Shown piece by piece: positions 5,549-63,284 of a stretch of DNA of 64,000 nucleotides. The position numbers and the translations under genes were made by a program. This DNA is from Acidobacteriota bacterium (lineage in GTDB: Bacteria; Acidobacteriota; Terriglobia; 2-12-FULL-54-10). The notes under the pieces are model-generated. The model was not told where the DNA came from. It searched no databases and saw only the letters and a program-made list of their open reading frames with translations. Location of the stretch: assembly GCA_009691245.1 (NCBI GenBank), contig SHUM01000004.1, forward strand, positions 9,032 through 73,031, in the 5' to 3' direction. How positions within the stretch are numbered: position 1 is the stretch's first letter; each line of letters opens with the position of its first letter.

Positions 5549-5567
5549 CGGCAAAGTAACAGCGCCC

Positions 5568-5612
5568 GTGACAGTGCCGCGACCGTCAGCGAGCGGACCC
5601 GGTGGCCGGGCC
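5568..5612 (-). repeat. REP-like dispersed repeat copy (reverse orientation)
   Basis: rc = GGCCCGGCCACCGGGTCCGCTCGCTGACGGTCGCGGCACTGTCAC; matches the family consensus GCTGACGCGCGCGGCWCTGTCACGC. Confidence 0.7.
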
Positions 5613-5700
5613 GCAACGCTTTCTCATTGCTCGCCGCATTGCTTTTCCAACGCTTCCCCAACCTTCCCAGTGATTCTGGCGCGTGACGCTGCACATCGTG

Positions 5701-5745
5701 CCCGCTCAGGCCGGGTCCGCTCGCTGACGCGCGCGGCTCTGTCAC
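5701..5745 (+). repeat. REP-like dispersed repeat copy; forms an inverted pair with 5568-5612
   Basis: CCCGCTCAGGCCGGGTCCGCTCGCTGACGCGCGCGGCTCTGTCAC. Confidence 0.7.
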
Positions 5746-5780
5746 TTGTTCGCGCCCCGCTGCTGTGCCAGAATAAGCTC

Positions 5781-8253: not shown

Positions 8254-8283
8254 CTCTGCGCAATCTGTGTAATCTGCGGATCG
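8254..8283 (+). repeat. Copy of the recurrent motif CTGCGCAATCTGTGTAATCTGCGGAT (family S)
   Basis: Seen at 8254-8283, 18272-18294, 57874-57900 (rc) and 57911-57940. This copy lies about 55 nt upstream of the 8337 start codon. Confidence 0.6.
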
Positions 8284-9560: not shown

Positions 9561-9650
9561 GGAGGAATGGGTGAGTGGTTGAAACCGGCGGTCTTGAAAA
9601 CCGTTTGCCTCGAAAGGGGCACGGGGGTTCGAATCCCTCTTCCTCCGCCA
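9561..9650 (+). tRNA. tRNA-Ser (anticodon UGA), including 3' CCA
   Basis: Hand-folded: 7-bp acceptor GGAGGAA/TTCCTCC, anticodon loop CTTGAAA, long variable arm, T-loop GGTTCGAATCC, discriminator G, CCA. Confidence 0.9.
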
Positions 9651-9704
9651 TTATTCGGCAAACTTAAAGCAGAGCCGCGATGGAACATCTCGGCGCGCCG
9701 TGGA

Positions 9705-9768
9705 CCGGGAGGGAGCGCACACGTTCGACGATTGTCAGTGATCGTCAAACGTGTGCGCTCCCTCCCGG
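9705..9768. repeat. 64-nt near-perfect hairpin (21-bp perfect stem CCGGGAGGGAGCGCACACGTT / AACGTGTGCGCTCCCTCCCGG) 55 nt after tRNA-Ser, followed by a partial REP-like motif (GTCGCGGCTCTGTTCACGC)
   Basis: Seen directly; the 22-nt loop is itself quasi-palindromic (GACGAT...ATCGTC). Confidence 0.75.
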
Positions 9769-9805
9769 TCGCGGCTCTGTTCACGCTGCACAATCGAAAG
9801 TAGGT

Positions 9806-13100: not shown

Positions 13101-13134
13101 CTGACCACGTGCCACGCGCGCGGCTCTGTCACGC
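13101..13134 (+). repeat. REP-like dispersed repeat copy
   Basis: CTGACCACGTGCCACGCGCGCGGCTCTGTCACGC, between the STAND gene stop and the cytochrome gene start. Confidence 0.7.
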
Positions 13135-13181
13135 AACACCATCACGCCCTGCACTGGCACATTGTGAACGTGCGCGGCGCC

Positions 13182-15191
13182 CTACTCCCCGCGCTGCTCC
13201 TGGATCGCCTGCGCCCGCTTTCTCAGCGCGGTAGCCTCCTTCGTCCGCCCCAACTCCTGCAACACCGCCGCAAGGTTTTTGCATACCAGCGCAATATGAG
13301 GATGGTCAGGTGGCAGCGACTTTTCGCGGATGGCCAGCGCGCGGCGGTAGAGCGGCTCGGCTTGGCTGTACGCGCCGCGCCCGTTCAAGTAGAAGCCGGT
13401 CTGATTGAGCAGCAGCGCCGCCTCCACAAACTCAAACCCCAGGTTTTCGATCCAACGGGCGCAAGCCAAAGCCTGCGGCAGCATCCGCTCGCATCGAGAC
13501 CAATTCTGAAACTCAGGCATCGGGAAGGCTGCGTCCACGGCCCGCACGGCCCGTTCCGCATAATTCCGCCGGTCCTCCTGCGTCATCCTATCGCGAATAA
13601 CGGCTTGCGCAATCCTGTGAATGCTGTAGGCGCTGGCACCGGTGCTCCTGCTGATCAGGGAATATTTTCGGAGCGGCGCGAGCGCTTCATCCAGCAAGAG
13701 CGGGTTCTGCTGGTAGTCCGCCAGAGCCGCCCCCAGTGCGGAGCCAACCTGCGCAGCACCGCCGGTAACCAGCTCGAACGGGATGTCATCCGGCGCGAGG
13801 AAAGCGCTCACCCGCAGCAGCTCCGCGGCTGGCGGAGTCTTTTCCACTTCTCCAAAGTTTAGCTTCCAGGTGGTGGCCACTAATTCAGAATAGCCTCCGG
13901 CAACCGGACCACGATCATTCAGTAGAGCAACTCCACGATTGCGATAGGTCTTCAGGTAATCCTGGAACGTAGACTCCTTGGCCACAATGTAGGCCGCGGC
14001 CTGCTCCAATGCCAGCGGCAGATAGCCTAGCTCTTTGGCCAAATCCCGCGCGGCCTCCTGCTCCTTCTCCTGGCTTGACTGCCGCGAGGTGCGAGCCAGC
14101 AGGAAGTCCAAAGCCTCGTCTGGCTCGAAGTCTCCAAGGGAATGCGTTGTAACATTTCCCAGTGCGTCAAGAATGCCGGGGCGGGAAGTGAGCAGAATCG
14201 CGCCTTTGATTTCAATCGGAAGCAATGGCTTGATGAGTTCGGGCCAGTCCGCATTGTCAAAAATCAGGAGCCATCCGTCGTTTTCGCTTAACCAGCTCGT
14301 TACCGCATGGCGGACCACAGTCTGGTCCGAAGAATCGCTGCCGGGCAGTTCGAGCATTCGCGCGATTGTCCCGAATCCCGAATTGATGCTTTCCTCCGAG
14401 GAGGCTCGCACCCAGAGAATCGCGCGATAATCATCACGGTGCCGATAGGCGTATTCCGCCGCCGTTTGTGTCTTGCCCTTGCCGCCGAGACCTGTGATCG
14501 CCTGCTTCCTGATCCCCTTGGTGATGAAGTTTTCATGTAGGGTGGCGAGTAGTTTCTCGCGTCCTGTAAACCAATCGGTTCTTTGTTGCGGCACGATAAA
14601 GAACTTTTGGGGGACGACGAAATCTTGTTTGCGTTCTCTTGGTTGTAGATGCGGCTCCGGTCCCAGCGGGGGCTTTGGGGTGGCGTGCTTACCTTTTAGG
14701 CGGCGCAACAGGAGATCGAACCCCTCTTCTGTCGTTGGGTTGTAATGGTTAACCCCTTGAAGAACAATTGGAATGTGTTTAGCGTCATCAGCAGTGAATA
14801 CCACCGGAATGAACTTCGTGTTGCGACCTTGAGAATTGTACAATTCCTGCGTAATGATCGCGCCTTCCCAGGTTGCTCCCAGGCCTTTCCCTACTTCTTC
14901 TTTTTTCCGAAATCGCCGGAGATAAGTCTCGGTACAAATCACCAGGACAAATTCGGATGCCTCGATCTCATCCTCCATCCATGTCGGCCAGCCTTCCGGC
15001 GGGGAGTCGATATATTGATCGATCATGGCGTCAACATTGTTGTCGCGCAGCTTTTTGGCAAGGGCAAGCACTTGATCTTGGAAGGCAGTATCCCCATGTG
15101 CGTAACTGATGAATACGCGCTGTGCGGGACTGGGTTTCTCTTGGCTCAATCGCAACCTCGCATCAAACAAGCAGACAGTATCATAGCCCAC
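13182..15191 (-). CDS. SEFIR/TIR-like domain-NB-ARC (P-loop NTPase)-TPR STAND protein; candidate NLR-like antiphage immunity protein
   Basis: N-terminal VFISYAHGDTAFQDQVLALAKKLRDNNVDAMIDQY...FVLVICTETYL (SEFIR/TIR-superfamily signature). Walker A GLGGKGKTQTAAEY, Walker B LLIFDNAD, NB-ARC-like GxP region, and a C-terminal kinesin-light-chain-type TPR block. 669 aa. Confidence 0.85.
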   Translation of the reverse strand: MGYDTVCLFDARLRLSQEKPSPAQRVFISYAHGDTAFQDQVLALAKKLRDNNVDAMIDQYIDSPPEGWPTWMEDEIEASEFVLVICTETYLRRFRKKEEVGKGLGATWEGAIITQELYNSQGRNTKFIPVVFTADDAKHIPIVLQGVNHYNPTTEEGFDLLLRRLKGKHATPKPPLGPEPHLQPRERKQDFVVPQKFFIVPQQRTDWFTGREKLLATLHENFITKGIRKQAITGLGGKGKTQTAAEYAYRHRDDYRAILWVRASSEESINSGFGTIARMLELPGSDSSDQTVVRHAVTSWLSENDGWLLIFDNADWPELIKPLLPIEIKGAILLTSRPGILDALGNVTTHSLGDFEPDEALDFLLARTSRQSSQEKEQEAARDLAKELGYLPLALEQAAAYIVAKESTFQDYLKTYRNRGVALLNDRGPVAGGYSELVATTWKLNFGEVEKTPPAAELLRVSAFLAPDDIPFELVTGGAAQVGSALGAALADYQQNPLLLDEALAPLRKYSLISRSTGASAYSIHRIAQAVIRDRMTQEDRRNYAERAVRAVDAAFPMPEFQNWSRCERMLPQALACARWIENLGFEFVEAALLLNQTGFYLNGRGAYSQAEPLYRRALAIREKSLPPDHPHIALVCKNLAAVLQELGRTKEATALRKRAQAIQEQRGE

Positions 15192-15375: not shown

Positions 15376-15478
15376 GGTGGCGCAGGCATTCTTGCCTGCG
15401 GGGTTTGAAGTGCTTTTATTTTGGCGGGCTGGAATGCCTGCCCTACCAAAAGACGCAGGCAGGAATGCCTGCGCCACC
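15376..15478. repeat. 103-bp element with 25-nt terminal inverted repeats (GGTGGCGCAGGCATTCTTGCCTGCG / CGCAGGCAGGAATGCCTGCGCCACC, 24/25 match) and internal AATGCCTGC repeats
   Basis: Seen directly; MITE-like or structured-RNA-like; about 185 bp upstream of the STAND start codon. Confidence 0.6.
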
Positions 15479-15969
15479 CATATGCCTGCATCACTGCTAC
15501 AAACGAAGGATGATTTCGGCGGTCGGGGGGTGAGCCATAAATTACCCTCACGGCAATTTGTCAACCACTTTGCAAATGGGAAATAGGGAGCGCGAGTGAA
15601 CAAAGCGCGACTTGCAAACCGCGAATTTTGTCAAATTGGAAAATTTGGATTCTTTGGGCAGAAAGGCGCAGGGATAATTGAAAGGAAAGTTGCTGCGGGC
15701 GCTCTGCCTGTCCCCATTCTCCGACCCCAATCCCCTGGTTTGTCAATCTGGTCAGAGTGGTCAGAACCGTGAAAATTTGCACTTTGGGCTGGGCCGACGA
15801 TTTGGTCGCGCCAGCCGCTCACTTTTAGGGTGACAAGAAGCATTGAAACGGTGGGAATCGGTGTGCTACTCTGAGGGCCATTTGCAAGCCCGGGTCTGTC
15901 TTCTGAAATGCGCTGATCATCTGGAATCCCCTGAAGGGGGCGACCTGTGGGCAGGAGGGAGCAGTCATC

Positions 15970-18120
<2,151 letters not shown>

Positions 18121-18271
18121 CGCTCGCGCAACTGACTTGTGTGGCCCGCACGGCAGTGCCGCTGCCTTGTTGTGCCAGGTGGTCGCTTCAAACGAGCGTT
18201 CCCGCATCAGGGTGTTTCACTTGCTGGTTGTCGCAATCAATGTTAACTTACACAGCGGATTGGTAGTTGTT

Positions 18272-18294
18272 CCCATCTGCGTAATCTGCGGATG
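18272..18294 (+). repeat. Copy of motif family S (CCCATCTGCGTAATCTGCGGATG)
   Basis: Seen directly; overlaps the start of the kinase remnant. Confidence 0.55.
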
Positions 18295-20670: not shown

Positions 20671-20908
20671 GTAAATGATATTATCTCATGGTTAGTCAGC
20701 CGCGTTATCCTGTTGAATAGAATTATTCAAATCCATCAGGGTATGCAGGCTACTATCTGGCAGCGCCCAAATGATCAATGCATGCACGCGTCGTCATTCC
20801 CAATTCACAACGAGAGTGGAGAGCCATGGCCTTGGTCCTCGCCGGAGCGACCGCCGGAGCAAACGGTCCCGCGCAAACGCTGATTGCAGAGAAGGGCGGC
20901 CGGGAGGT

Positions 20909-20954
20909 GGGTTTTCCATAGGCCCGCTTGCTGACGCCCGCGGCACTGTCACGC
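20909..20954 (+). repeat. REP-like dispersed repeat copy (full-length form GGGTTTTCCATAGGCCCGCTTGCTGACGCCCGCGGCACTGTCACGC)
   Basis: Seen directly; overlaps the higA stop. Confidence 0.75.
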
Positions 20955-21251
20955 AGCATGGATGGCGGCGGGCTTGTAGCGGTGCACGTGAATTTGATTC
21001 TCAGTGGCGCGGTGGACGGCCAGGTCGTATGCCAACTGCATGCGCATCAGGTGGTCCATTTTGGGGCCGCAGGCCTTTTCGATGCGCAGGGCCATCTGCG
21101 GGCTCAGGTCGGTGCGCTCATTCAACAGCAGCGACAAGGCTTGGCGGCTGACTTTCAGAATGCCGGCGGCCTCCGAAACGGATAGTTCTAATGGCTGGAT
21201 AATCTGGCGTCGAATGATGCCGCCGGGATGCGGCGGATTTTTCATAGCCAT
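20949..21251 (-). CDS. higA: HigA-family antitoxin (XRE-type HTH), orphan
   Basis: MKNPPHPGGIIRRQIIQPLELSVSEAAGILKVSRQALSLLLNERTDLSPQMALRIEKA is the classic HigA/VapI antidote signature. No RelE/HigB-like ORF in either flank. Confidence 0.75.
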   Translation of the reverse strand: MAMKNPPHPGGIIRRQIIQPLELSVSEAAGILKVSRQALSLLLNERTDLSPQMALRIEKACGPKMDHLMRMQLAYDLAVHRATENQIHVHRYKPAAIHAA

Positions 21252-21278
21252 GGATTGAATGCTCCCAATCGCTGGGCG

Positions 21279-21314
21279 TGTCCGCTTGCTTACGCGCGCG
21301 GCTCTGTGGCACGG
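21279..21314 (+). repeat. REP-like dispersed repeat copy
   Basis: GTCCGCTTGCTTACGCGCGCGGCTCTGTGGCACGG; same orientation as 20909-20954, so higA is bracketed by direct copies. Confidence 0.7.
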
Positions 21315-30478: not shown

Positions 30479-30537
30479 GCTACAGAGACCGGAAGGAAGC
30501 GGAGGTTGATCTCCATAACGAGACCAACCCCCGCTCC

Positions 30538-30560
30538 CTGACGGTCGCGGCTCTGTAAGC
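30538..30560 (+). repeat. REP-like repeat, short copy (CTGACGGTCGCGGCTCTGTAAGC)
   Basis: Seen directly. Confidence 0.5.
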
Positions 30561-41744: not shown

Positions 41745-43133
41745 TTACGCCGTCAACCCCGGCAGTCTACCGGTGGAGTCGCCTAGCGTGTCCAACTTGA
41801 TTCCCAACTGATCGAACAATGTGAGATACAAGTTTGCCAGCGGGGTGGCTTGCTGATAGCGGATATGATGGCCGGCCTTCAGCTTGGCGAGCTTGCCGCC
41901 CAACACGATCATGGGCAGGTTGTCGTGCAGGTGCAGGTTGCCGTCGCTGATAGCGCTGCCGAAGACGACCATGGTACGGTCGAGCAGCGACGAGTCGCCA
42001 TCGGGCGTGGCGGCCATCTTGTCGAGAAAATAGTTGAAGGTGGCCATGTGGTGCAGGTTGATCTTCAGGACTTTCGCCACCTTCACTGGATCGCCGTTGT
42101 GATGCGTGAGCGGGTGATGCGGGTCGCCAACGCCGATCTCCGGATACGCCTTGGCGCTCTGCTCGCGCGCCAACATGGTGGATGAGACGCGTGTCATATC
42201 AGTCTGGAAAGCGAGTATCTGCATGTCGAACATCAGGCGCGCATACTCGGCGTAGGTCTCCGGCACGCCCAGCGGACGCTCGATGCGCGGCAACTCGCGC
42301 GCGGATTGTTCTTCGGCCATGCCGATGCGGCGCTCCACGTCGCGCACCGCTTCCAGATATTGATCCATCTTCTGCCGATCAGTAGAGCCGAGGCCGGTCA
42401 GCATGGTCTTGGCGTCATTGATGACCGAGTCGAGAATGCTGCGGTTCTGGCGCAGACGCGCGAGGCGCGCCGCCGGGTCCAGCGAATCAGTGTCGCCGAA
42501 CAGCCGCTCGAACACTGCGCGCGGCTCGGTCTCCATCGGCATGGGCGTGGTCGGATTGCGCCACGACACCGTGTTCAGATACGCGCAACTATAACCAGCC
42601 TCGCACGTCCCCACTAGTTCGCCTTCAAAGGCCAGCTCGAGCGAAGGCAGTTGCGTTTTCTTGCCAAACTCCTTCGCGGCAATCTGGTCCACCGTGGTGC
42701 CCGCTTCCAGATCCGCGCCCTCGGTCTTCCTGGGATGCGCGCAGGAGAGGAACACGGCGCTCGCGCGCGAGTGATTCCCGACCGCGCCTTCGCCGGGCAG
42801 CAGCGCGTCGGCGTTGCGCAGCGCCAGACCGCTCAACAGCACCATGCGATCCTTGTAAGCGGCGATGGGCTCCAGGATGGGAGTCAGCGCGTAACCCGCG
42901 CCCTCGGCGGCGGGCGTCCACTTATCCATGCACATGCCGGTGGGCGAGTAGATGACGGCCAGCCTCTTCACGGCATCGGCATCAGTCATAGCCGGCACCG
43001 CCGCGAACGCCGGCGTCATGCCATCGAGCAGCGGCAGCGCCAGCGTGGCGCCCACGCCGCGCAGAAACGTCCGGCGCGGAATCGACTTTTTGAATATCAT
43101 TGCGGTCGCATTATTGTTCATGACTTTGGTCAT
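41745..43133 (-). CDS. DUF1501 (sulfatase-like) protein with Tat signal
   Basis: RRTFLRGVGATLALPLL twin-arginine motif; DUF1501 core. 4-nt ATGA overlap with the upstream DUF1553 gene. Confidence 0.85.
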   Translation of the reverse strand: MTKVMNNNATAMIFKKSIPRRTFLRGVGATLALPLLDGMTPAFAAVPAMTDADAVKRLAVIYSPTGMCMDKWTPAAEGAGYALTPILEPIAAYKDRMVLLSGLALRNADALLPGEGAVGNHSRASAVFLSCAHPRKTEGADLEAGTTVDQIAAKEFGKKTQLPSLELAFEGELVGTCEAGYSCAYLNTVSWRNPTTPMPMETEPRAVFERLFGDTDSLDPAARLARLRQNRSILDSVINDAKTMLTGLGSTDRQKMDQYLEAVRDVERRIGMAEEQSARELPRIERPLGVPETYAEYARLMFDMQILAFQTDMTRVSSTMLAREQSAKAYPEIGVGDPHHPLTHHNGDPVKVAKVLKINLHHMATFNYFLDKMAATPDGDSSLLDRTMVVFGSAISDGNLHLHDNLPMIVLGGKLAKLKAGHHIRYQQATPLANLYLTLFDQLGIKLDTLGDSTGRLPGLTA

Positions 43134-45601
43134 GGTTGGGCGGACCTCCTCATCTGAAACGGAACACTCTTGACGATGCCCATGATGATTGACGACCAGC
43201 GGTAATCGCCGGGCGCGGCGGCGCGCACAATCGAGCGCACGGCGGGCATGTCGTAATACTCAAGACCGCGGCCCAGCGCGTAGGTCATCAGCTTGCGCGT
43301 GGTGGCGGAGACCACTTCATCGCCGCGGCTGACCAGCAGGGCGCGCAACTCGGCAGGGCCGGAAAATTTTGCGCCGTCGGGCAGCACGCCCGAAGCGTCA
43401 ATCTTGGCGGCTCCCGGCCCAGTTCCCGAGGTCGTGCGGAAACGGCCAATGGCGTCGAAGTTCTCCAGCGCAAAGCCCAGCGGGTCCATGCGCGAGTGAC
43501 AACCATAGCACGCCGGGTTCTTGCGATGCTGCTCCATCGAATCGCGCACTGAAAGTGCCTGGCCGCCTTCGTCCTCCACCTTCAGAGAAGGCACGGCGTC
43601 AGGCGGAGACGGGGGCGGCGCGCCGAGAATATTCTCCAGCACCCACTTGCCGCGGAAGGTGGGCGAGGTGCGATTGGGATACGAGGTAACGGTGAGAATC
43701 GCTCCCTGCCCCACCAGCCCCATGCGATTGGGGTCGCTGAGTTTGACGCGGCGGAAGTGGCTGCCGTAGACGCCACCGATGCCGTAGTGCCGCGCCAGCC
43801 GCTCGTTGAGGAAGGTGTAGTCGGCGCGCATCAGGTCCAGCACGCTGCGATCCTCGCGCAACATGCTTTCGAAGAACATGCGTGTCTCGGTGCGAAACGC
43901 GGCGCGCATGTTTTCGTCGAACTCGGGAAAGACCTCCGGGTCCGGCACGATCTTCTCCATGTTGCGCAGGTAGAGCCACTGTCCGGCAAAGTTACTGATC
44001 AGCGCTTCGGAGCGCGAGTCGGCGAGCATGCGGCGAACCTGCTGCTCCAGCACCTTGGGGTCTTTCAGCTTGCCCTGCTCCGCGAGTTTCAGCAGAGCCT
44101 CATCCGGCCCGGTGGACCACAGGAAGAATGACAGGCGCGAGGCCAGCTCCAGATCGCTGAGGCGATAGGGCGCGCCGGGCGCGATACCCGCCGGATCGCT
44201 CTCCTGACGGAACAGAAACTGCGGCGCGACGAGCAGGCGGCGCAGCGACATGGCAATGCCGGACTCAAACGCGTTGCCGTTGGCACCCAGTGTTTGCGCC
44301 TCCTTGCGGCCTGCTTCGTAAAAATCCATGAGCGTCTGTACTTCGTGGTCGGTAACCGGGCGGCGATAGGCGCGCCGCGTCAGGCGCGAGAGAATCTGCT
44401 TCGCGCAGCCAGCCTCTTCTTCCAGTCTGGCAGGCTTGCAGGAAAGTATTGCATTGCGGCTAGTGGTGTCCCCTGACCCGGTGGCGGTGATCGGGCCGGT
44501 GATGAACACGTAGCCAATCCCCGGCAGGTCGTCAACCTGCGCATATTGCGCGCCCGCCAGCTTGCGACGGAAGGTTCCCTCCGGCAGACCGGACTTGGTC
44601 AGGAAGGAAACGCTGATCACGCGCTTGCCCGCCTTGGCCGGGAAACGGAACACCAGCCCCGCATCGGCGGTGCGCTCGTAGCTTTCTTCATCCCCGCCCG
44701 CCGGCTTGTCGTAATCCTGTCCGCCATAAGCGACAGGCTCACCTGACCGGCCGCCGTTGGTGGGGCCGCCGCCCACGGTAAAGGTATTAAGTTTTGCGCC
44801 ATCAAGGCGGACATCCATCTGGTGCGGCTGCATCAGGCCGATGATGTCGTGAACGCGGTCGCGCGCCAGACGCACTTTCAACTCATACTCACCATCAACT
44901 GGGAAGTAATGCTCCACGCCAAGGCCGCCGCGCGAGCCGAAGGGTACCAGCTCGCTGGCGCGCTCATCCTGAATCATGCGCGTGGACACGGAGTAGGCTT
45001 CCATCTCGGGGCGCATCGAGGTATCGCCCAGCGCGGTGCGCACGATCTTGCCCGCCGCGGTCAGGTAGCGCTCAAACAATGTGGGGGAGACGGTCAGCAC
45101 ATCGCCGATGTTGTCGAAGCCGTAGCTGGCGTCATCGTTGGGCAGCAGCCGCTCCGCGTTGACATCAAGACCCATCAGGTCGCGGATGGCGTTGGCATAC
45201 TCGGCGCGATTCAGCCGATGCAGCGCGGGGCGACCCGGGTCGGGGCGAGCGGCCCCGGCGCGGTCGAGTTCGCCTTCCAGATAATTTGCAAATGCGGTGT
45301 AGGTGGCCTGATCGGGACGCGGCGCGCCGGGCGGCGGCATGGTGGCCGTCTTAATCTTGATGAGAACCTTTTCAAAGTCCTCGGCGTGCTGACCGACCTG
45401 ATCGAAATTCTTGTCGGTCAGCACAAACCCAGCCGTGCGCAGCTTCTCATTGTGGCAGGTCGCGCAATACTTATTGGCCAGCGCCGTGTAGGCCGCGCCC
45501 GGCGAGGCAGGAGGGGGTGTCTGCGCCACGGAAATACACGGCGCGACAACGACAAATCCGGCAAGTACGGCACGCCGCAGCATGTTCAGTAGAGCGTCCA
45601 A
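43130..45601 (-). CDS. Cytochrome-c-like N-terminus / DUF1549 / DUF1553 protein
   Basis: KYCATCHNEKLRTAG (CxxCH); 823 aa; same architecture as 52327-54798. Confidence 0.85.
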   Translation of the reverse strand: MDALLNMLRRAVLAGFVVVAPCISVAQTPPPASPGAAYTALANKYCATCHNEKLRTAGFVLTDKNFDQVGQHAEDFEKVLIKIKTATMPPPGAPRPDQATYTAFANYLEGELDRAGAARPDPGRPALHRLNRAEYANAIRDLMGLDVNAERLLPNDDASYGFDNIGDVLTVSPTLFERYLTAAGKIVRTALGDTSMRPEMEAYSVSTRMIQDERASELVPFGSRGGLGVEHYFPVDGEYELKVRLARDRVHDIIGLMQPHQMDVRLDGAKLNTFTVGGGPTNGGRSGEPVAYGGQDYDKPAGGDEESYERTADAGLVFRFPAKAGKRVISVSFLTKSGLPEGTFRRKLAGAQYAQVDDLPGIGYVFITGPITATGSGDTTSRNAILSCKPARLEEEAGCAKQILSRLTRRAYRRPVTDHEVQTLMDFYEAGRKEAQTLGANGNAFESGIAMSLRRLLVAPQFLFRQESDPAGIAPGAPYRLSDLELASRLSFFLWSTGPDEALLKLAEQGKLKDPKVLEQQVRRMLADSRSEALISNFAGQWLYLRNMEKIVPDPEVFPEFDENMRAAFRTETRMFFESMLREDRSVLDLMRADYTFLNERLARHYGIGGVYGSHFRRVKLSDPNRMGLVGQGAILTVTSYPNRTSPTFRGKWVLENILGAPPPSPPDAVPSLKVEDEGGQALSVRDSMEQHRKNPACYGCHSRMDPLGFALENFDAIGRFRTTSGTGPGAAKIDASGVLPDGAKFSGPAELRALLVSRGDEVVSATTRKLMTYALGRGLEYYDMPAVRSIVRAAAPGDYRWSSIIMGIVKSVPFQMRRSAQP

Positions 45602-50959: not shown

Positions 50960-52330
50960 CTAGACAGTCGTCAAATCCAGTTTGCCGGTGGCGTCGCTGT
51001 ACTTGGCATCGAGCCATCCATCTACGGAGACGCCGGCGATATCCATCACCGACAGCAGCACGTTCGAGAACGGCTGCCCGGGGAAGCGCAGGTGGCGATC
51101 ACCCTTCAGCTTGCCGTGCGCGCCGCCGACCAACATGACCGGAATGTTGTTGTGGATGTGGAAATTGCCATCGCTCAAGCCGCTGCCGAACAGCACCAGC
51201 GAGTGATCGAGCAACGTCCCATCGCCATCCGGCGTGTTGCGCAACCGCTCAATGAAGTGCGCGAACAACTGGGCCTGGAACAGGTCAACTTTCGCCACCA
51301 GTTCAATCGTCTCGGGAACTTCCTTGTGGTGCGAGAGCGGGTGATGGCCGTCGCCTACCCCAATCTCGCGGAAGGTTCGGTCGGTTTGCTCGCGGCCCAT
51401 CATCATGGTGGTGACGCGCGTCAGGTCCGACTGGAACGCCAGCACTTGCAGATCAAACATCAGCTTGGCATGCTCGGAGTACTTCGCGGGAATGCCCGCG
51501 GGCCGCTCCAAGTTTGATTTGCCAGCCACGGTGGGTTGACCCTCGGCGGGCTCATCGGATTTTTCGGCCACCTGAATGCGGCGCTCAATATCGCGTATGG
51601 CATCGAGGTACTCGCTCAACTTCGCGCGGTCACCCGATCCGATGCCGCCCATCATGCGCGAGACACCGTCGCTAACGGAGTCCAGAATGCTGCGCTCTTT
51701 CTGCATACGGCGAGCGCGAGCGGCTGCGTCGGCTGAATCGGTATCACCATACATGCGCTCGAACACGGCGCGCGGATTGATCTCCATGGGCAGCGCCGTC
51801 GCAGCGCCACGCCAGGAAATGGTGTTCATGTAATAGGCGCCGTAGCTGCCGTCGCTAACAGCCGTTTCAGGCGCGTCGAGAGCCATTTCGAGCGACCCGA
51901 GCTGCGTTTCCTTGCCCGCCTCCCGGGCGATCATCTGGTCCATCGACACTCCGAGCGCCCCGCCGGGCTTCGGATGCAAACCCGTAAGGAAAGCGGCGGC
52001 CGGGCGCGCGTGTACCCCGCCAGGCTCGTTGCCCACCGCGTCGGCAGCCTTGATGTTCAGGCCCGTCAGCACCGTGAGCTGGTCCTTAAAGGGAGCCAGC
52101 GGCGCGAGGGTAGGGGAGATTTCAAAACCCACACCATCGGTGCGCGGCGTCCATCTGGACATGATGCGGCCATTGGGCACGAAGACGGTCGCCACGCGCA
52201 GGGGCTTCTTGCCCGTGTCGTTCACCGCTGCCATCGCTGGCGACATGCTATCCAGCATAGGCAACGCCAAGGCGGCACCCGCTCCACGCAGGAATGTACG
52301 ACGGGGAATGGCTTTCTTGAATATCATCAT
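50960..52330 (-). CDS. DUF1501 protein with Tat signal (paralog of 41745-43133)
   Basis: MMIFKKAIPRRTFLRGAGAALALPMLD; ATGA overlap with the upstream gene. Confidence 0.85.
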   Translation of the reverse strand: MMIFKKAIPRRTFLRGAGAALALPMLDSMSPAMAAVNDTGKKPLRVATVFVPNGRIMSRWTPRTDGVGFEISPTLAPLAPFKDQLTVLTGLNIKAADAVGNEPGGVHARPAAAFLTGLHPKPGGALGVSMDQMIAREAGKETQLGSLEMALDAPETAVSDGSYGAYYMNTISWRGAATALPMEINPRAVFERMYGDTDSADAAARARRMQKERSILDSVSDGVSRMMGGIGSGDRAKLSEYLDAIRDIERRIQVAEKSDEPAEGQPTVAGKSNLERPAGIPAKYSEHAKLMFDLQVLAFQSDLTRVTTMMMGREQTDRTFREIGVGDGHHPLSHHKEVPETIELVAKVDLFQAQLFAHFIERLRNTPDGDGTLLDHSLVLFGSGLSDGNFHIHNNIPVMLVGGAHGKLKGDRHLRFPGQPFSNVLLSVMDIAGVSVDGWLDAKYSDATGKLDLTTV

Positions 52331-54798
52331 AGCTCTTTCGACCTCCTCATTAAAAACGGCTGACTCTTTACGATTCCGGTAATCAGGGCCGACCAGCGGT
52401 ATCCGCCGGGCGCGGCATCTCGCAGAATTTTGCGCACCGACGCCATATCATAATACTCCACTCTGCGTCCCAATGCATAGATAAGCATCTTCTCAGTCAC
52501 GGTGTTCATGAACTGGTGGGGATTCTTGAGCAGCGTCTCGCGAAACTCCACAGTGCCGTTGATCGGGGTTCCGTCGGGCAGCACGCCGGTGGCGTCAATG
52601 GGCGGGTTGCCATCGCCAAATGGGCTTTCGGTGCGCCACTTGCCGATGGGATCAAAGTTCTCCATGGCGAAGCCGATGGGATCCATCAGCTTGTGGCAGC
52701 TAATACAGGCAGGATTGGCGCGGTGCTGCTCCATCTGCTGCTTCAAGGTCAGCGCCTTGCCTTCCTTGCTCTTGGGTTGCAGATCGGGAACATTTGGTGG
52801 CGGCGGCGGCGGCGGCGTGCCCAGCAAATTCTCCAGTACCCACTTGCCGCGCACCACCGGTGAAGTCCGATTGGCGCGCGAAGTCAGCGTCAAAATGCTG
52901 CCTTGGCCGAGCAAGCCGCGGCGAGTGTTGAAGGCCGCGTCCGCCAGAGAAACCTTGCGGAAGTGGCTGCCATAGACGTTGGGGATGCCGTAGTGTTTGG
53001 CCAGCCGCTCGTTCACATATGTGAAATCGGCGCGCAGCATATCCAGGACGGAGCGGTCCTCGTGCAGCATATCGGCGAAGAACAGTTCGCTCTCGCGCTC
53101 GAATCCCTCGCGCAGGTTGTCATCATAATCCGGGAACATATCCGGGTCAGGCGAAAGCAGCTTCAGGTTGCGCAGGCTCAGCCACTGGCCGGCGAAGTTG
53201 CTCACCAGCGCCTCGGCACGACGATCCGCCATCATGCGCTTCACCTGCTGGTCGAGCACACCGGGGTCCTTCAGCTTGCCCTTTTCGGCGAGTGCGATTA
53301 ACTCTTCATCGGGAATGCTGGACCACAAAAAAAATGATAGCCGAGAAGCGAGTTCCAGATCGCTAACCGCGTAAGGCTTGCCCGTCGCCGCGCCCGTGGG
53401 ATCCTGCTCCACGCGGAACAGAAACTCAGGGCCAGCCAGGATGCGTTGCACGGCAAGCTGAACGCCTGCTTCAAAGCCGCCGTCCTTGGTGCCTTCGACA
53501 TAAAGCTTCATCAGCGGATCAATCTCGCCGGCCACCACGGGACGACGATAGGCGCGGCGCGCCAGCGTGGAGATGATCTTGCGCGCGCAAGGCTCCTGCT
53601 CAGCGGCGCTTTTCGGGGCGCAGGAGAATATCTTTTCGCGGCTGGCGGTCTCGCCCGAGCCTTTGGGCGCAAACGGTCCCGTGATGGTAACCGAGGCCAC
53701 GGCCGGATTGCCGCCACGATACTGGCCCAGGTCGGCATAGAGCAGCGGCGGCGTGTACACGCCCTCGGGCTTCGAGTTTTCCATTAGGAACGCAACGCCC
53801 ACCAGGCGCGCGCCTGCCTTCATGGGGAAGCGCGAAACCAGCGCATCATCGGCGGAATATTCGTAGTCCACTTGCTTGGTGTCGCCGCGATAGTCCGGAT
53901 CATTGCGCGAGAAGATCGGACCGGAGCGACCGCGGTATTCGCCGCCAATCGTGAACAGCTTCACGCGCGCGCCATCCACGCGAATGTCGAGCGGATGCGG
54001 ATCGCGCAGCCCGCGAATGTAGCCGTCGTTGTTGCGGACCAGCTTGATGCTGACCTCGTACTCGCCATCGAGCGCGAAGTTGTGGCGCACGGCAAGTCCG
54101 CCGCGCGAGCCGAACATCAAGTCTTCGCTGGCGCGATCCTCCTGCACCACCAACTGCGGAGTTTCGTAGGTAACGCCGCTGGGCTTCTGCGTGGGATCGC
54201 CCACGGCCATGCGACTGATCTTGCCCGCCGCAAGCATGTAGCGCTCCATCAGCACGGGAGAAACCGAGAGCACTTCCCCAATGTTATCGAATCCATGCTC
54301 GATATTATCAGGGGGCAGCAACGATGCAGAGTCAATCTCCATGGCTAGCAGATCACGGATGGCGTTGGTGTACTCGGCACGATTCAAACGATGCACGCTG
54401 GCAGTTCGCCCAGGATTCGCATTGGCTGCGGCGGCCTTGTCGAGCGAAGTCTCCAGATACGTGGTGAATGCGGTCAGCGTCGCTTTGTCAGGGCGCGGCG
54501 CGCCTCCCGGAGGCATTTGTCCGGCACGCAATTTTTTGACGGCCGTTTCCCAAATCTGCGCGTCGCGGGAAACATCATCAGCGTCAGCCTTATCGAGCGA
54601 CAGGCCCGCGGTGTTGAGTTTTTCATTATGGCAGGTAACACAATAGCGGCTGACCAGCACGCGATGCGGCGAAACTGGCGCAACAGCGGCAGGCTGTTGC
54701 TGCGCTTGGCTGGATGCGCTCGTGGCCAGCGCCACCACGATCATCGCCACCTGAAAATTCCGTCTGATATTCATCAACAACCTTCGGCCTTCGGCCAT
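52327..54798 (-). CDS. Cytochrome-c-like N-terminus / DUF1549 / DUF1553 protein (paralog of 43130-45601)
   Basis: RYCVTCHNEKLNTAG; 823 aa. Confidence 0.85.
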   Translation of the reverse strand: MAEGRRLLMNIRRNFQVAMIVVALATSASSQAQQQPAAVAPVSPHRVLVSRYCVTCHNEKLNTAGLSLDKADADDVSRDAQIWETAVKKLRAGQMPPGGAPRPDKATLTAFTTYLETSLDKAAAANANPGRTASVHRLNRAEYTNAIRDLLAMEIDSASLLPPDNIEHGFDNIGEVLSVSPVLMERYMLAAGKISRMAVGDPTQKPSGVTYETPQLVVQEDRASEDLMFGSRGGLAVRHNFALDGEYEVSIKLVRNNDGYIRGLRDPHPLDIRVDGARVKLFTIGGEYRGRSGPIFSRNDPDYRGDTKQVDYEYSADDALVSRFPMKAGARLVGVAFLMENSKPEGVYTPPLLYADLGQYRGGNPAVASVTITGPFAPKGSGETASREKIFSCAPKSAAEQEPCARKIISTLARRAYRRPVVAGEIDPLMKLYVEGTKDGGFEAGVQLAVQRILAGPEFLFRVEQDPTGAATGKPYAVSDLELASRLSFFLWSSIPDEELIALAEKGKLKDPGVLDQQVKRMMADRRAEALVSNFAGQWLSLRNLKLLSPDPDMFPDYDDNLREGFERESELFFADMLHEDRSVLDMLRADFTYVNERLAKHYGIPNVYGSHFRKVSLADAAFNTRRGLLGQGSILTLTSRANRTSPVVRGKWVLENLLGTPPPPPPPNVPDLQPKSKEGKALTLKQQMEQHRANPACISCHKLMDPIGFAMENFDPIGKWRTESPFGDGNPPIDATGVLPDGTPINGTVEFRETLLKNPHQFMNTVTEKMLIYALGRRVEYYDMASVRKILRDAAPGGYRWSALITGIVKSQPFLMRRSKEL

Positions 54799-57811: not shown

Positions 57812-57873
57812 TTTCAGGCGCGTGCGCCTGCCGGTTAAAAGCTGATGTTCAGGCCCGCCATCGACCGCGAATC

Positions 57874-57940
57874 CATCCGCAGATTACACAGATTGCGCCG
57901 ATGCTTTTCGCTCTGCGGAATCTGTGTAATTTGTGGATAG
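57874..57940. repeat. Inverted dyad of motif family S (CATCCGCAGATTACACAGATTGCGCCG -10nt- CTCTGCGGAATCTGTGTAATTTGTGGAT)
   Basis: Seen directly. Confidence 0.6.
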
Positions 57941-57975
57941 TCCGTGGATAGGAACCGCCCTCTTGCAACCGGAGC

Positions 57976-58023
57976 GGGTTTTTCCATTGGCCCGCTTGCT
58001 CACGCGCGCGGCACCGTCACGCG
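57976..58023 (+). repeat. REP-like dispersed repeat copy (full-length form)
   Basis: GGGTTTTTCCATTGGCCCGCTTGCTCACGCGCGCGGCACCGTCACGCG. Confidence 0.75.
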
Positions 58024-58244
58024 ATTAACCCTTGACTTAAGTGCCCCTGGCTGAGTATATTCGGCCCCAAATGGGAACAACGCTAGGAAAGCTGCGGGCG
58101 GGGTCCCTTTAGAGATTGGGTTAAGCGGCTGATCACCAATTGAATGTTTGGAGCGGAGTCCGCCGGACTCTGGCTGACCGCGTCCCGGCGTGTGCCCGGC
58201 GCGATAGAGTATGACGCGAATAACAATTTCGAAGGAGCGTTACC

Positions 58245-61535: not shown

Positions 61536-61640
61536 CGTCGTCATCCCGAGCGCAGCGAGGGACCTGCTTTTCGCACCTACTGATGAAGATGCGGATTGAA
61601 AAAGCAGGTCCCTCGCTGCGCTCGGGATGACGACTTTTTA
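61536..61640 (+). terminator. Long perfect hairpin (about 32-bp stem GTCATCCCGAGCGCAGCGAGGGACCTGCTTTT ... AAAAGCAGGTCCCTCGCTGCGCTCGGGATGAC) plus T-run; rho-independent terminator
   Basis: Seen directly, 28 nt after the receptor stop. Confidence 0.8.
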
Positions 61641-61704: not shown

Positions 61705-63060
61705 ATGCTGCAACGCATCGCCGCACGCGCGCTCGCTTTCTCGCAACATTACATGCCGGCGCCCTACCTGCTCTCGCTGCTGCTGACGTTTGTCTCGGCG
61801 GCGCTGGCCTTCGCCATCACGCACACGGCGGTCGAGAAGATTCTCTCGTCCTGGTACGGCGGCATCTGGGAGATTCTCGCCTTCACCACGCAGATGGCGC
61901 TGATCCTGCTGTGCGGCCACGCGCTGGTCGATGCGCCGCTGGTGCGCCGCGCGCTTGACCGCATCAGCGCGATCCCGCGCACGGCGGTCCACGCCGGGAT
62001 GCTGGTGTTTCTGGTGGGCTGGGCCACGGCGCTATTCAACTGGGGATTCTCGCTGGTGGTTTCCGGCGTGCTGGTGCGCGAGATTCCGCGCCGCATGACC
62101 GGCGTGTCGAAAGGCTATCTCGCCGCAGCGGGCTACACGGGATGGGCCGTGTGGGCCTCGGGAATTTCCAGTTCCATCGCGCTGGTTACGGCCACGCCCG
62201 GCTCGCCCATGAACATTATTGAGCGCATGTCGGGCGCGACCATTCCGCTGTCAGAGACGCTGCTGCCGCTCTATAACGTAGTCCCCGTGCTGGGCATGGC
62301 CATACTCATGCCGCTACTGTTCGCTAAAATTCATCCCGCATCCGAAACAGTGCCGCGCGCGTCAGCAAGCGGGCCGCTGGAACACCCTGCTCCAGACGCG
62401 CCAGTTGGCCACGATGCTTCCGGTCACCGAATCCCTAAGACCATCGCAGAGCGCATTGAGCAGAGCCGTCTGGTTACAATCATTCTCGTCGGCATGGCCG
62501 CGCTGTTCATTGTCCAGCGCATCGCGGCGGGCGCGTTCAATCTGGACCTGAACATGATGATCTTTCTGTTGCTCGCGCTGGGATGGGCGCTGCACGGCAC
62601 CCCTATCAGTTACATGCAGGCGTTCCACGGCGGCGCAAAGGCAGCCGGGCCGATCCTGCTCGCCTATCCGCTGTACGGCGGCATCCTCGGGCTGATCCGC
62701 GACACCGGTCTGGCCGATTGGTTCGCGCAGCAGTTTGTCGCATTTTCCACCAGTCATACCCTGCCCTTCTGGTCCTACGTCAGTTCCAACGTCATCACGC
62801 TGTTCGTGCCGTCGGGCGGCGGACACTGGGCCGTGCAGGGTCCGGTGATGGTGAAGGCCGCGCTGGAACTCGACGCTTCCCTCGCCAAGACCGCCATGGC
62901 CGTGGCCTTCGGCGAGCAGACCGGCAACCTCTTCCAACCCTTCTGGGCGCTGCCCATCGTCAGCATCGGCGGCGTCAGCGTGCGCGAAATGATGGGCTAC
63001 TGCATGGTGGCCTTCTTCATCGCCTTCCCCCTGTTCGGCATCGCCCTGCTGGTGTTCTAG
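61705..63060 (+). CDS. Short-chain fatty acid transporter family (AtoE-like) integral membrane protein
   Basis: 12-14 TM helices; sequence pattern typical of the AtoE family (my recollection). Confidence 0.65.
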   Translation: MLQRIAARALAFSQHYMPAPYLLSLLLTFVSAALAFAITHTAVEKILSSWYGGIWEILAFTTQMALILLCGHALVDAPLVRRALDRISAIPRTAVHAGMLVFLVGWATALFNWGFSLVVSGVLVREIPRRMTGVSKGYLAAAGYTGWAVWASGISSSIALVTATPGSPMNIIERMSGATIPLSETLLPLYNVVPVLGMAILMPLLFAKIHPASETVPRASASGPLEHPAPDAPVGHDASGHRIPKTIAERIEQSRLVTIILVGMAALFIVQRIAAGAFNLDLNMMIFLLLALGWALHGTPISYMQAFHGGAKAAGPILLAYPLYGGILGLIRDTGLADWFAQQFVAFSTSHTLPFWSYVSSNVITLFVPSGGGHWAVQGPVMVKAALELDASLAKTAMAVAFGEQTGNLFQPFWALPIVSIGGVSVREMMGYCMVAFFIAFPLFGIALLVF

Positions 63061-63117
63061 CGTGGCGCGGCGCGTGACAGTGCCGCGCGCGTGCGCAAGC
63101 AGGCCTATGGAATAACC
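63061..63117 (-). repeat. REP-like dispersed repeat copy (reverse orientation)
   Basis: rc = GGTTATTCCATAGGCCTGCTTGCGCACGCGCGCGGCACTGTCACGCGCCGCGCC. Confidence 0.75.
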
Positions 63118-63192
63118 ACGTCCCGGTTACGCCGTCTTTTCCCAATCCAGAGCACAACGCCATCGTGAAACCCAACCATCTCCAAACGCGGC

Positions 63193-63253
63193 GTTGTGTT
63201 CCATCGGCCCGCTCGCTGACGCGCGCGGCACTGTCACGCGGCTCTGTCACGCG
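63193..63253 (+). repeat. REP-like dispersed repeat copy with a tandem-duplicated 3' module (GGCACTGTCACGCGGCTCTGTCACGCG); inverted partner of 63061-63117
   Basis: Seen directly. Confidence 0.75.
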
Positions 63254-63284
63254 TGCTATATTCTGAAGGAGGAGCGCTGCGACA

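Follow-up and report, generated by a model that had tools for sequence, protein, structure and literature searches.

The Y1 HuH proteins are split into the IS200-type enzymes (class 1), RAYT/TnpA_REP (class 2) and the small class 3, and the hosts of class 3 are Planctomycetes, Acidobacteria and Proteobacteria (Quentin et al. 2018, BMC Genomics 19:475, PMC6006769). Class-3 genes, for example ABJ83664.1 of Solibacter usitatus and ABQ56422.1 of Legionella pneumophila, have on their flanks atypical hairpins whose 5' foot reads CnGA, and about 600 copies of these are present in S. usitatus. Table S1 of the same paper gives CAGAGCCGCGACCGTTAGGGAGCG (S. usitatus) and CCGAGCCGCGACCGTAAGGGAGCGGA (L. 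pneumophila), both with the structure ((((..((....))..)))) (PMC6006769). For IS608, ISDra2 and TnpA_REP, a 5' tetranucleotide guides the choice of the cleavage site (Corneloup et al. 2021).

Our results showed that the repeats dispersed in the window (the whole 64-kb stretch of DNA that was analysed), including the inverted pair at 5568-5745, belong to this published and little-studied class-3 TnpA_Y1 REP-like family. The cores of the window copies are the reverse complement of CAGAGCCGCGACCGTNAGGGAGCG, and the core equals the published "atypical REP with CnGA foot" base for base, together with the hairpin and the 4-nt GTNA loop of Table S1. The copy number, the dispersal and the host phyla also agreed, the window being derived from an Acidobacteria MAG, and units flanking a class-3 HuH-Y1 gene (NHVH ... 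YV[VI]xEQ) were found in related genomes, not in the window. These CnGA-foot REP-like units are very probably the DNA partner of class-3 HuH-Y1 ssDNA transposases of about 164 aa. The original prediction had described them as REP-like and noted that such families elsewhere serve as targets of RAYT-type transposases; the REP-like character and the Y1 (RAYT-like) target type were borne out, but the units are of the class 3 TnpA_Y1/CnGA-foot type and not of the classical GT[AG]G REP/RAYT type. The repeat sequence, searched as a string in the full-text literature, gave no match.

Each unit consists of a 26-nt core, in which the 5' foot C-N-G-A(-G) is followed by the imperfect hairpin CCGC-NN-SS-GTNA-SS-NA-GCGG. 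The outer stem of the hairpin has 4 bp (CCGC/GCGG) and the inner stem 2 bp (CC/GG or GC/GC); a 2x2 internal mismatch lies between the two stems, and the loop is GTNA. The active strand thus reads 5'-C-N-G-(A/T)-G and then a weak imperfect hairpin; the consensus given in the original prediction held under proper alignment, but it was written on the strand opposite to the functionally meaningful one. In 189 copies from the window and other genomes, the inner pair 7-14 covaried (C-G 138, G-C 47, non-pair 4), the outer four pairs were nearly invariant, pair 5-16 was always a T.C mismatch, and pair 6-15 was mostly C.T or T-G. Across 76 distinct sequences, 97.8% of cells were paired, which dropped to 27-45% in slid registers, and the observed covariation score was reached by 0 of 500 shuffles. 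The hairpin was shown through this covariation; most copies were gathered by a pattern in which the outer stem was fixed, so the real evidence consists of the one free pair and the approximately 88 copies found by profile only. The predicted hairpin appeared in 7 of 9 single units of the window, and the fold of single units was not more stable than that of shuffled sequence (z -1.1 to +1.5).

Tight and oriented association of the units with class-3 tnpA genes was shown in related genomes. A screen for ORFs bracketed by units found a gene at L106:2423-2917, a 164-aa ORF with the motifs YLITFSCYG...THVH...YVVEEQ (Pfam Y1_Tnp, E 3e-6) and REP doublets on both sides. A protein search with this class returned 436 relatives, which are about 164 aa long and carry the JGI name "REP element-mobilizing transposase RayT". 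In all, six class-3 tnpA loci were flanked by units (L106, L130, L131, L132/133, L134 and L100); those other than L106 are four loci chosen by protein identity and one truncated locus, all with units within about 10-110 nt. The units of L130 carry the GCGCGCG stem variant that is also present in the window. A metagenome scan gave 563 class-3 relatives; in 80 metagenomic loci, a unit lay no more than 200 nt upstream of the gene in 52 of 72 cases and downstream in 52 of 75, with a median distance of 20-23 nt and the feet pointing outward in 48/52 upstream and 45/52 downstream units. Farther from these metagenomic genes the unit density was 0.08 per kb. The foot NCNGAG was carried by nearly all of the 134 units beside tnpA, and a CAGT-type foot by at most one of them. 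The AlphaFold model of the class-3 enzyme (pLDDT 78.5) had Y1 HuH proteins as its top fold matches throughout, namely 4er8, which is the complex of a RAYT on its REP hairpin, IS200, ISDra2 and IS608, and the class-3 profile gave no significant match to PDB chains by sequence. The search for a cognate transposase suggested in the original prediction was answered in related genomes, where class-3 tnpA_Y1 genes are flanked by units; no class-3 or Y1 gene was found within the 64-kb window (best hmmsearch E 1.9).

In the window, nine matches to the 25-nt consensus CGCTYGCTGACGCGCGCGGCWCTGT were found with at most three mismatches, whereas 0.00 were expected from 100 dinucleotide-preserving shuffles. 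The nhmmer profile built from the window copies gave nine strong members with E<1e-7 (1e-13 to 3e-8), on the nhmmer strand at 5566-5604(-), 5708-5748(+), 20905-20955(+), 21263-21313(+), 30513-30559(+), 57972-58024(+), 62341-62392(-), 63071-63121(-) and 63191-63239(+), and three weaker copies at 1854-1894, 9740-9780 and 13114-13135, as well as a partial re-duplication at 63236-63254. Altogether, about 12 recognisable units (12-15 overall) and three decayed partner arms occupy 10 places, with a chance expectation of 0. The pattern and the profile census agreed that the dispersed family is real and far above chance, and every copy listed in the original prediction was confirmed. Two units (62341-62392 and 1854-1894) had been missed there, as had three decayed arms (1788-1814, 9670-9718 and 30483-30503). 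With these arms, three copies that had been counted as single are actually doublets.

The units are dispersed and lie mostly between genes. The decayed doublet at 1788-1888 has convergent genes on either side and consists of the left arm 1788-1814 (ACAGCGCCACGACCCCGAAGGAGTGG) and the right-arm core 1863-1888. The doublet at 9670-9780 starts 20 nt after tRNA-Ser (9561-9650); its left arm (9670-9718) is composed of CAGAGCCGCGA, a 24-nt insert (9681-9704) and CCGGGAGGGAGCGC, its right-arm core is 9755-9780, and its inner arms 9703-9732 and 9741-9770 are 97% complementary. This 24-nt insert, TGGAACATCYCGGCGCGCCGTGGA, interrupts the foot-proximal arm of a unit at an identical position both at 9681-9704 and at 658-685 of the related locus L135, and it is absent from 1788-1814, the window orthologue of that L135 place. 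At 13113-13134, a half unit with the foot and the proximal arm only (minus strand; CACGCGCGCGGCTCTGTCACGC on the plus strand) lies 48 nt past the stop codon of a TIR-NB-ARC-TPR gene. This gene (13182-15191, minus) encodes a 669-aa TIR/SEFIR + NB-ARC + TPR protein, an architecture typical of STAND-type defence proteins. Half copies of this kind, made of the foot and the proximal hairpin arm, were observed one to three times beside a full unit or alone (63236-63254, 13113-13134, L017, L131, L048 and L096).

Two minus-strand units in direct orientation to each other were located at 20905-20955 and 21263-21313. The former (core 20924-20949) is of the long form with a CAGT foot and the extension GGCCTATGGAAAACC, and the stop codon of a higA-like gene falls within it; the latter (core 21282-21307) is of the short form with a CAGA foot, 8 nt after the stop codon of an ABC ATPase gene, and closely precedes the higA-like gene. 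The higA-like HTH antitoxin gene (20949-21251, minus) between the direct units of 20905-21313 has no higB partner. The doublet at 30483-30559, 5 nt past a stop codon, has a decayed and shortened left arm (30483-30503, ACAGAGACCGGAAGGAAGCGG) and a right arm of the CC/GG variant with a CAGA foot (core 30531-30556). A single long-form unit with a CGGT foot (57972-58024, minus) occupies the divergent promoter region upstream of a TonB-dependent receptor gene. A third dispersed intergenic repeat, CTCTGCGCAATCTGTGTAATCTGCGGAT, was present at 8254-8281, 18266-18293 and 57911-57938 and as the reverse complement at 57872-57906; the copies that precede the TonB-dependent receptor gene are also conserved in the relative L123. 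The second clear doublet, of the long form with the feet outward, spans 63071-63254, beginning 11 nt past the stop codon of a transporter gene and ending 30 nt ahead of ftsY; its arms (63071-63121 and 63191-63239) are 88% complementary over 42 nt with 86 nt between them, and the tandem half copy 63236-63254 follows. In total, 7 of the 10 places begin no farther than about 50 nt from a stop codon or from the tRNA-Ser 3' end, in agreement with the earlier statement that the copies frequently abut stop codons. The accompanying statement that all copies are intergenic is wrong for the missed unit 62341-62392, which is read in frame within a full-length gene for an SCFA transporter; 20905-20955 also overlaps the higA-like stop codon. 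Nine units were oriented one way and three the other, with a window GC skew of -0.008, and these counts are too weak for any statement on lagging-strand targeting.

The units fall into two forms. The short form with the CAGA foot includes 1854-1894, 5708-5748, 9740-9780, 13113-13134, 21263-21313 and 30513-30559, and the CAGA foot was assigned to the six units 1863-1888, 5717-5742, 9755-9780, 13113-13134, 21282-21307 and 30531-30556. The long form of about 50 nt (20905-20955, 57972-58024, 62341-62392, 63071-63121 and 63191-63239) has a CAGT foot (once CGGT), a GC/GC inner stem and an extra GGCC-N-ATGGAA-M-ACC extension. The CAGT foot was found at 5571-5596, 20924-20949, 62347-62372, 63077-63102 and 63209-63234 and the CGGT foot at 57992-58017, so that foot position 4 is T in six window units versus CnGA in six. 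The left arm of the focal pair has the long-form type of foot, CAGT, but does not have the long-form extension. Similarity among the long-form copies is 85-95% over stretches of 39-47 nt, which suggests recent amplification.

The 26-nt core is widespread. A scan with the degenerate core CCGCTYSCTNACGSNCGCGGCWCTGT, with one genome per species, found it in at least 120 stretches, and the flanks outside the core were unrelated. Among the matches listed, the hosts were Acidobacteriota (Bryobacterales, Solibacter, Sulfopaludibacter, Terriglobia, Acidiferrales and group 4), Planctomycetota (Phycisphaerae, Planctomycetaceae, Pirellulales and Thermoguttaceae), Verrucomicrobiota, and single Dehalococcoidia and proteobacterial bins; many of the copies among these listed matches had an inverted partner 10-40 nt away, and many were followed by tandem foot-proximal half copies. 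The long form was also found in Ca. Sulfopaludibacter sp. SbA3 (L081 and L086) and in the relative L123. Two similar units 2.5 kb apart in L066 resembled the ends of an element and were rejected as such, as they bracket a gene for an RCC1-repeat protein and no transposase. In Legionella adelaidensis NCTC12735 (L125-L129), a few GC-rich copies of the unit lie between housekeeping genes, and no transposase gene was found within 4-20 kb of them; the PLSDB "plasmid" records of L125-L129 look like pieces of the chromosome.

Comparison of close relatives showed gain, loss and remodelling of units. In L123, whose transporter is 93% identical, two places are orthologous and conserved, namely the doublet that precedes ftsY and the receptor-gene unit at 57972-58024. 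The spacer between the receptor and transporter genes contains a REP doublet in L123 and, in the window, a perfect inverted repeat of 35 nt that belongs to another family. The latter repeat, GTCGTCATCCCGAGCGCAGCGAGGGACCTGCTTTT (61537-61634, with 28 nt between its arms), had no second copy in the window or in the fetched loci. No clean empty site marking a precise insertion was found in the relatives compared.

The long-form unit at 62341-62392 (plus strand, CAGT foot) is translated in frame as ETVPRASASGPLEH in the hypervariable central loop of the full-length SCFA_trans gene 61705-63060 (Pfam E 3e-102). The product of this gene has an identical counterpart among the proteins of an "Acidobacteria bacterium" MAG. 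In the 93%-identical relative L123 (4774-4820), the unit is kept in frame with two extra 24-nt segments. In P0020, a 69%-identical homologue (L121 3663-3700), the unit GAACCGAGCCGCGACCGAGAGGGAGCGG lies in the same loop in another frame and is read as EPSRDREGAV; it is an independent insertion. With two independent in-frame insertions in the same SCFA-transporter loop, it is conceivable, though on balance improbable, that coding sequences recurrently acquire such units as peptide loops or linkers.

The focal doublet consists of a left arm at 5568-5602 (plus strand), which reads foot first GTGACAGTG-CCGC-GA-CC-GTCA-GC-GA-GCGG-ACCCGG (core 5571-5596, foot CAGT), a 108-nt spacer (5603-5710), and a right arm at 5711-5745 (minus strand, foot first on that strand) with the core 5717-5742 (CCGCTCGCTGACGCGCGCGGCTCTGT on the plus strand), the CAGA foot and the GC/GC inner stem. 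The inner stem pair of the left arm is broken (C.C), forming a hybrid of the CC/GG and GC/GC variants. The two arms, GTGACAGTGCCGCGACCGTCAGCGAGCGGACCCGG and CCGGGTCCGCTCGCTGACGCGCGCGGCTCTGTCAC, are 35 nt each, 91% complementary and 108 nt apart. As ssDNA, the pair folded at -55.3 kcal/mol (z = -5.4 versus shuffles) and the pair at 63062-63256 at -63.7 kcal/mol (z -6.4), as expected from the original prediction that such inverted pairs could form long hairpins. The same prediction had offered a MITE as the other reading of 5568-5745. A MITE would here be a deletion derivative of a classical IS with terminal inverted repeats, moved as a whole piece by a DDE transposase. The two complementary arms around a short interior fit a MITE, and so does the similar overall size of the second pair at 63071-63240. 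However, the interiors of the window doublets are unrelated, with a similarity within the range of shuffles, and no copy of the whole element was present in the window; the doublet at the same intergenic place in the close relative L135, where the flanking protein is 92% identical, has arms of the other stem variant (CC/GG) and a spacer of about 43 nt instead of 108 nt. The arms also occurred as singletons, as half copies and inside a gene, they are the units that flank genes of Y1 and not of DDE transposases, and no target-site duplication was noticed by eye in the focal sequence. A MITE is therefore scarcely credible, and 5568-5745 is a REP doublet. At the focal intergenic place of the 70%-identical relative L138, no clear unit was found. 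The feet point outward in all window doublets as they do at the tnpA loci, and because this geometry matches that of the units bracketing a transposase gene elsewhere, 5568-5745 looks like an "empty REPtron" or REP doublet.

Two other explanations of the family were considered. The units could function mainly in transcripts, as terminators or mRNA stabilisers, as processing sites or as a structured small RNA, and be kept by selection on RNA. The position of 7 of 10 places close to a stop codon or the tRNA 3' end, the strong folding of the doublets and the common T-G wobble at pair 6-15 on the strand of the earlier consensus fit this idea, but the units run both with and against transcription, they are also present in a divergent promoter region and within coding sequence, and their near-identical core is tied to the flanks of tnpA in several phyla. 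Moreover, the scan for terminator patterns and promoters reported no site inside 5568-5745, and Rfam 15, used with gathering and permissive thresholds, had only tRNA-Ser reaching threshold in the window; at the focal place the sole hit was a spurious plant miRNA hairpin at 27 bits versus a gathering threshold of 168. We consider this explanation very unlikely, and give equally little weight to the view that the units are binding or structural sites of host proteins (compare gyrase, IHF and Pol I on the BIMEs of E. coli) or immobile relics of an extinct transposase. In favor of this second view are the window free of a transposase gene, the several decayed units (1788-1888 and 30483-30503) and the stable inheritance of two places in a relative. 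Against it stand the likeness of the long-form copies, the intergenic spacer that carries a doublet in L123 and not in the window, and the frequency of class-3 genes in assemblies of Bryobacteraceae and other Acidobacteria (436 in the protein and 563 in the metagenome search).

The preferred explanation, units as the DNA partner of class-3 enzymes, suggests the following mechanism by analogy with IS608/ISDra2 TnpA and E. coli TnpA_REP. A class-3 enzyme, assumed to be encoded elsewhere in the source genome, would bind the hairpin of the unit on single-stranded DNA, use the foot as a guide, and cut and rejoin near the foot, thereby dispersing single units. Doublets would arise when a unit inserts beside an existing unit; once in place, they could form hairpins of -55 to -64 kcal/mol in DNA or in read-through transcripts at gene ends and may affect transcript ends. 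The points against this explanation are the lack of a class-3 gene in the window, the rarity of T-foot units beside tnpA, the weak folding of single units and the failure to find a clean empty site among the relatives compared. The main loose end lies in the long form, whose CAGT foot has GTG in place of the GAG that is near-invariant beside known class-3 genes. Tentatively, and with the odds rather against it, the long form (about 50 nt, CAGT/CGGT foot, shared with L123 and SbA3) may be a recently amplified and re-targeted offshoot of the class-3 REPs; if true, the change of GAG to GTG would, by the IS608 guide rule, imply either that the partner enzyme has diverged or that the site of cleavage or the target site has changed.

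The class-3 Y1 enzymes form a third branch between the IS200/IS605 transposases and the domesticated RAYTs, and their DNA partner is unusually uniform across phyla, which makes it a convenient substrate for biochemistry on the reading of a foot and a mismatched hairpin. The window adds a natural variant of the foot and examples of turnover between close relatives. The units also give rise to spurious ORFs of excessive length, and at least one real gene is translated through a unit; masking of the 26-nt core would clean gene calls in assemblies of Acidobacteria, Planctomycetes and Verrucomicrobia. Elsewhere in the window, two diverged copies of a gene pair (41745-45601 and 50960-54798), 9.2 kb apart and with about 71-76% DNA identity in the matched stretches, each encode a DUF1552 (HXXSHH) protein and a DUF1592/1588/1587/1585/1595 protein, and each pair adjoins a large outer-membrane receptor-like gene.

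Compared with the classical REP/BIME sequences and their class 2 RAYTs in E. coli, Pseudomonas and Stenotrophomonas, the units described here are likewise short extragenic hairpins with an unpaired 5' tetranucleotide and hundreds of copies, often in inverted pairs, with a single-copy Y1 HuH gene that has its own repeats on either side and a model fold that matches 4er8. They differ in the foot, CnGA instead of GT[AG]G, in the much weaker hairpin with its fixed 2x2 mismatch, and in the core, which is near-identical across phyla whereas classical REPs vary between species; the enzyme belongs to a separate class that has no significant sequence match to solved structures. With the foot CAGA/CAGT, the fixed mismatch and a fold no better than shuffles, assignment to the classical class 2 was rejected. 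Three canonical REPs with a GTGG/GTAG foot and a well-paired hairpin, for example GTGG-CGCAGGCA-TTCT-TGCCTGCG, were observed at 15376-15480; this cluster is of the classical type that goes with class-2 RAYTs, and the genome therefore has two REP systems unrelated to each other.

The REPINs of Pseudomonas fluorescens (Bertels and Rainey 2011) are also inverted REP doublets that fold into long hairpins, but in REPINs the whole doublet replicates together with its spacer. In the present family the spacers are unrelated between paralogous doublets, within the range of shuffles, and differ in length between orthologues, and a REPIN was rejected. The ends of IS200/IS605 elements (IS608 and ISDra2) share the sub-terminal imperfect hairpins, the 5' guide tetranucleotide and a Y1 HuH enzyme acting on ssDNA, and the Y motif of class 3 (Y....Q) resembles that of class 1. 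However, the ends of these IS are two hairpins on one strand, whereas the units flanking class-3 genes are inverted with the feet outward; repetition of the gene together with its ends as a whole was not seen at class-3 loci, and the small units are widely dispersed. An IS200/IS605 element was rejected on this geometry of the nearest units at class-3 loci and on the absence of a Y1 gene from the window. Intragenic units have been described for the GTAG and CGTC repeats (Di Nocera et al. 2013). As in the Rickettsia palindromic elements and intragenic REPs, the unit at 62341-62392 is in frame in a coding gene and tolerated in a variable loop; the repeat family is a different one, and here the same transporter loop was hit independently, in another frame, in a distant homologue.

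The closest system is the class-3 REPs of Quentin et al. (2018), with which the window units share the 26-nt core, the ((((..((....))..)))) hairpin, the GTNA loop, the CnGA foot in the six CAGA units, the high copy number, the host phyla and the presence of units on both sides of the gene. They differ from these in that half of the copies here are of the long form, with its extension, GC/GC stem and CAGT/CGGT foot. A family of this kind was already described in 2018, the unusual local details are few, and current understanding is not overturned by them.
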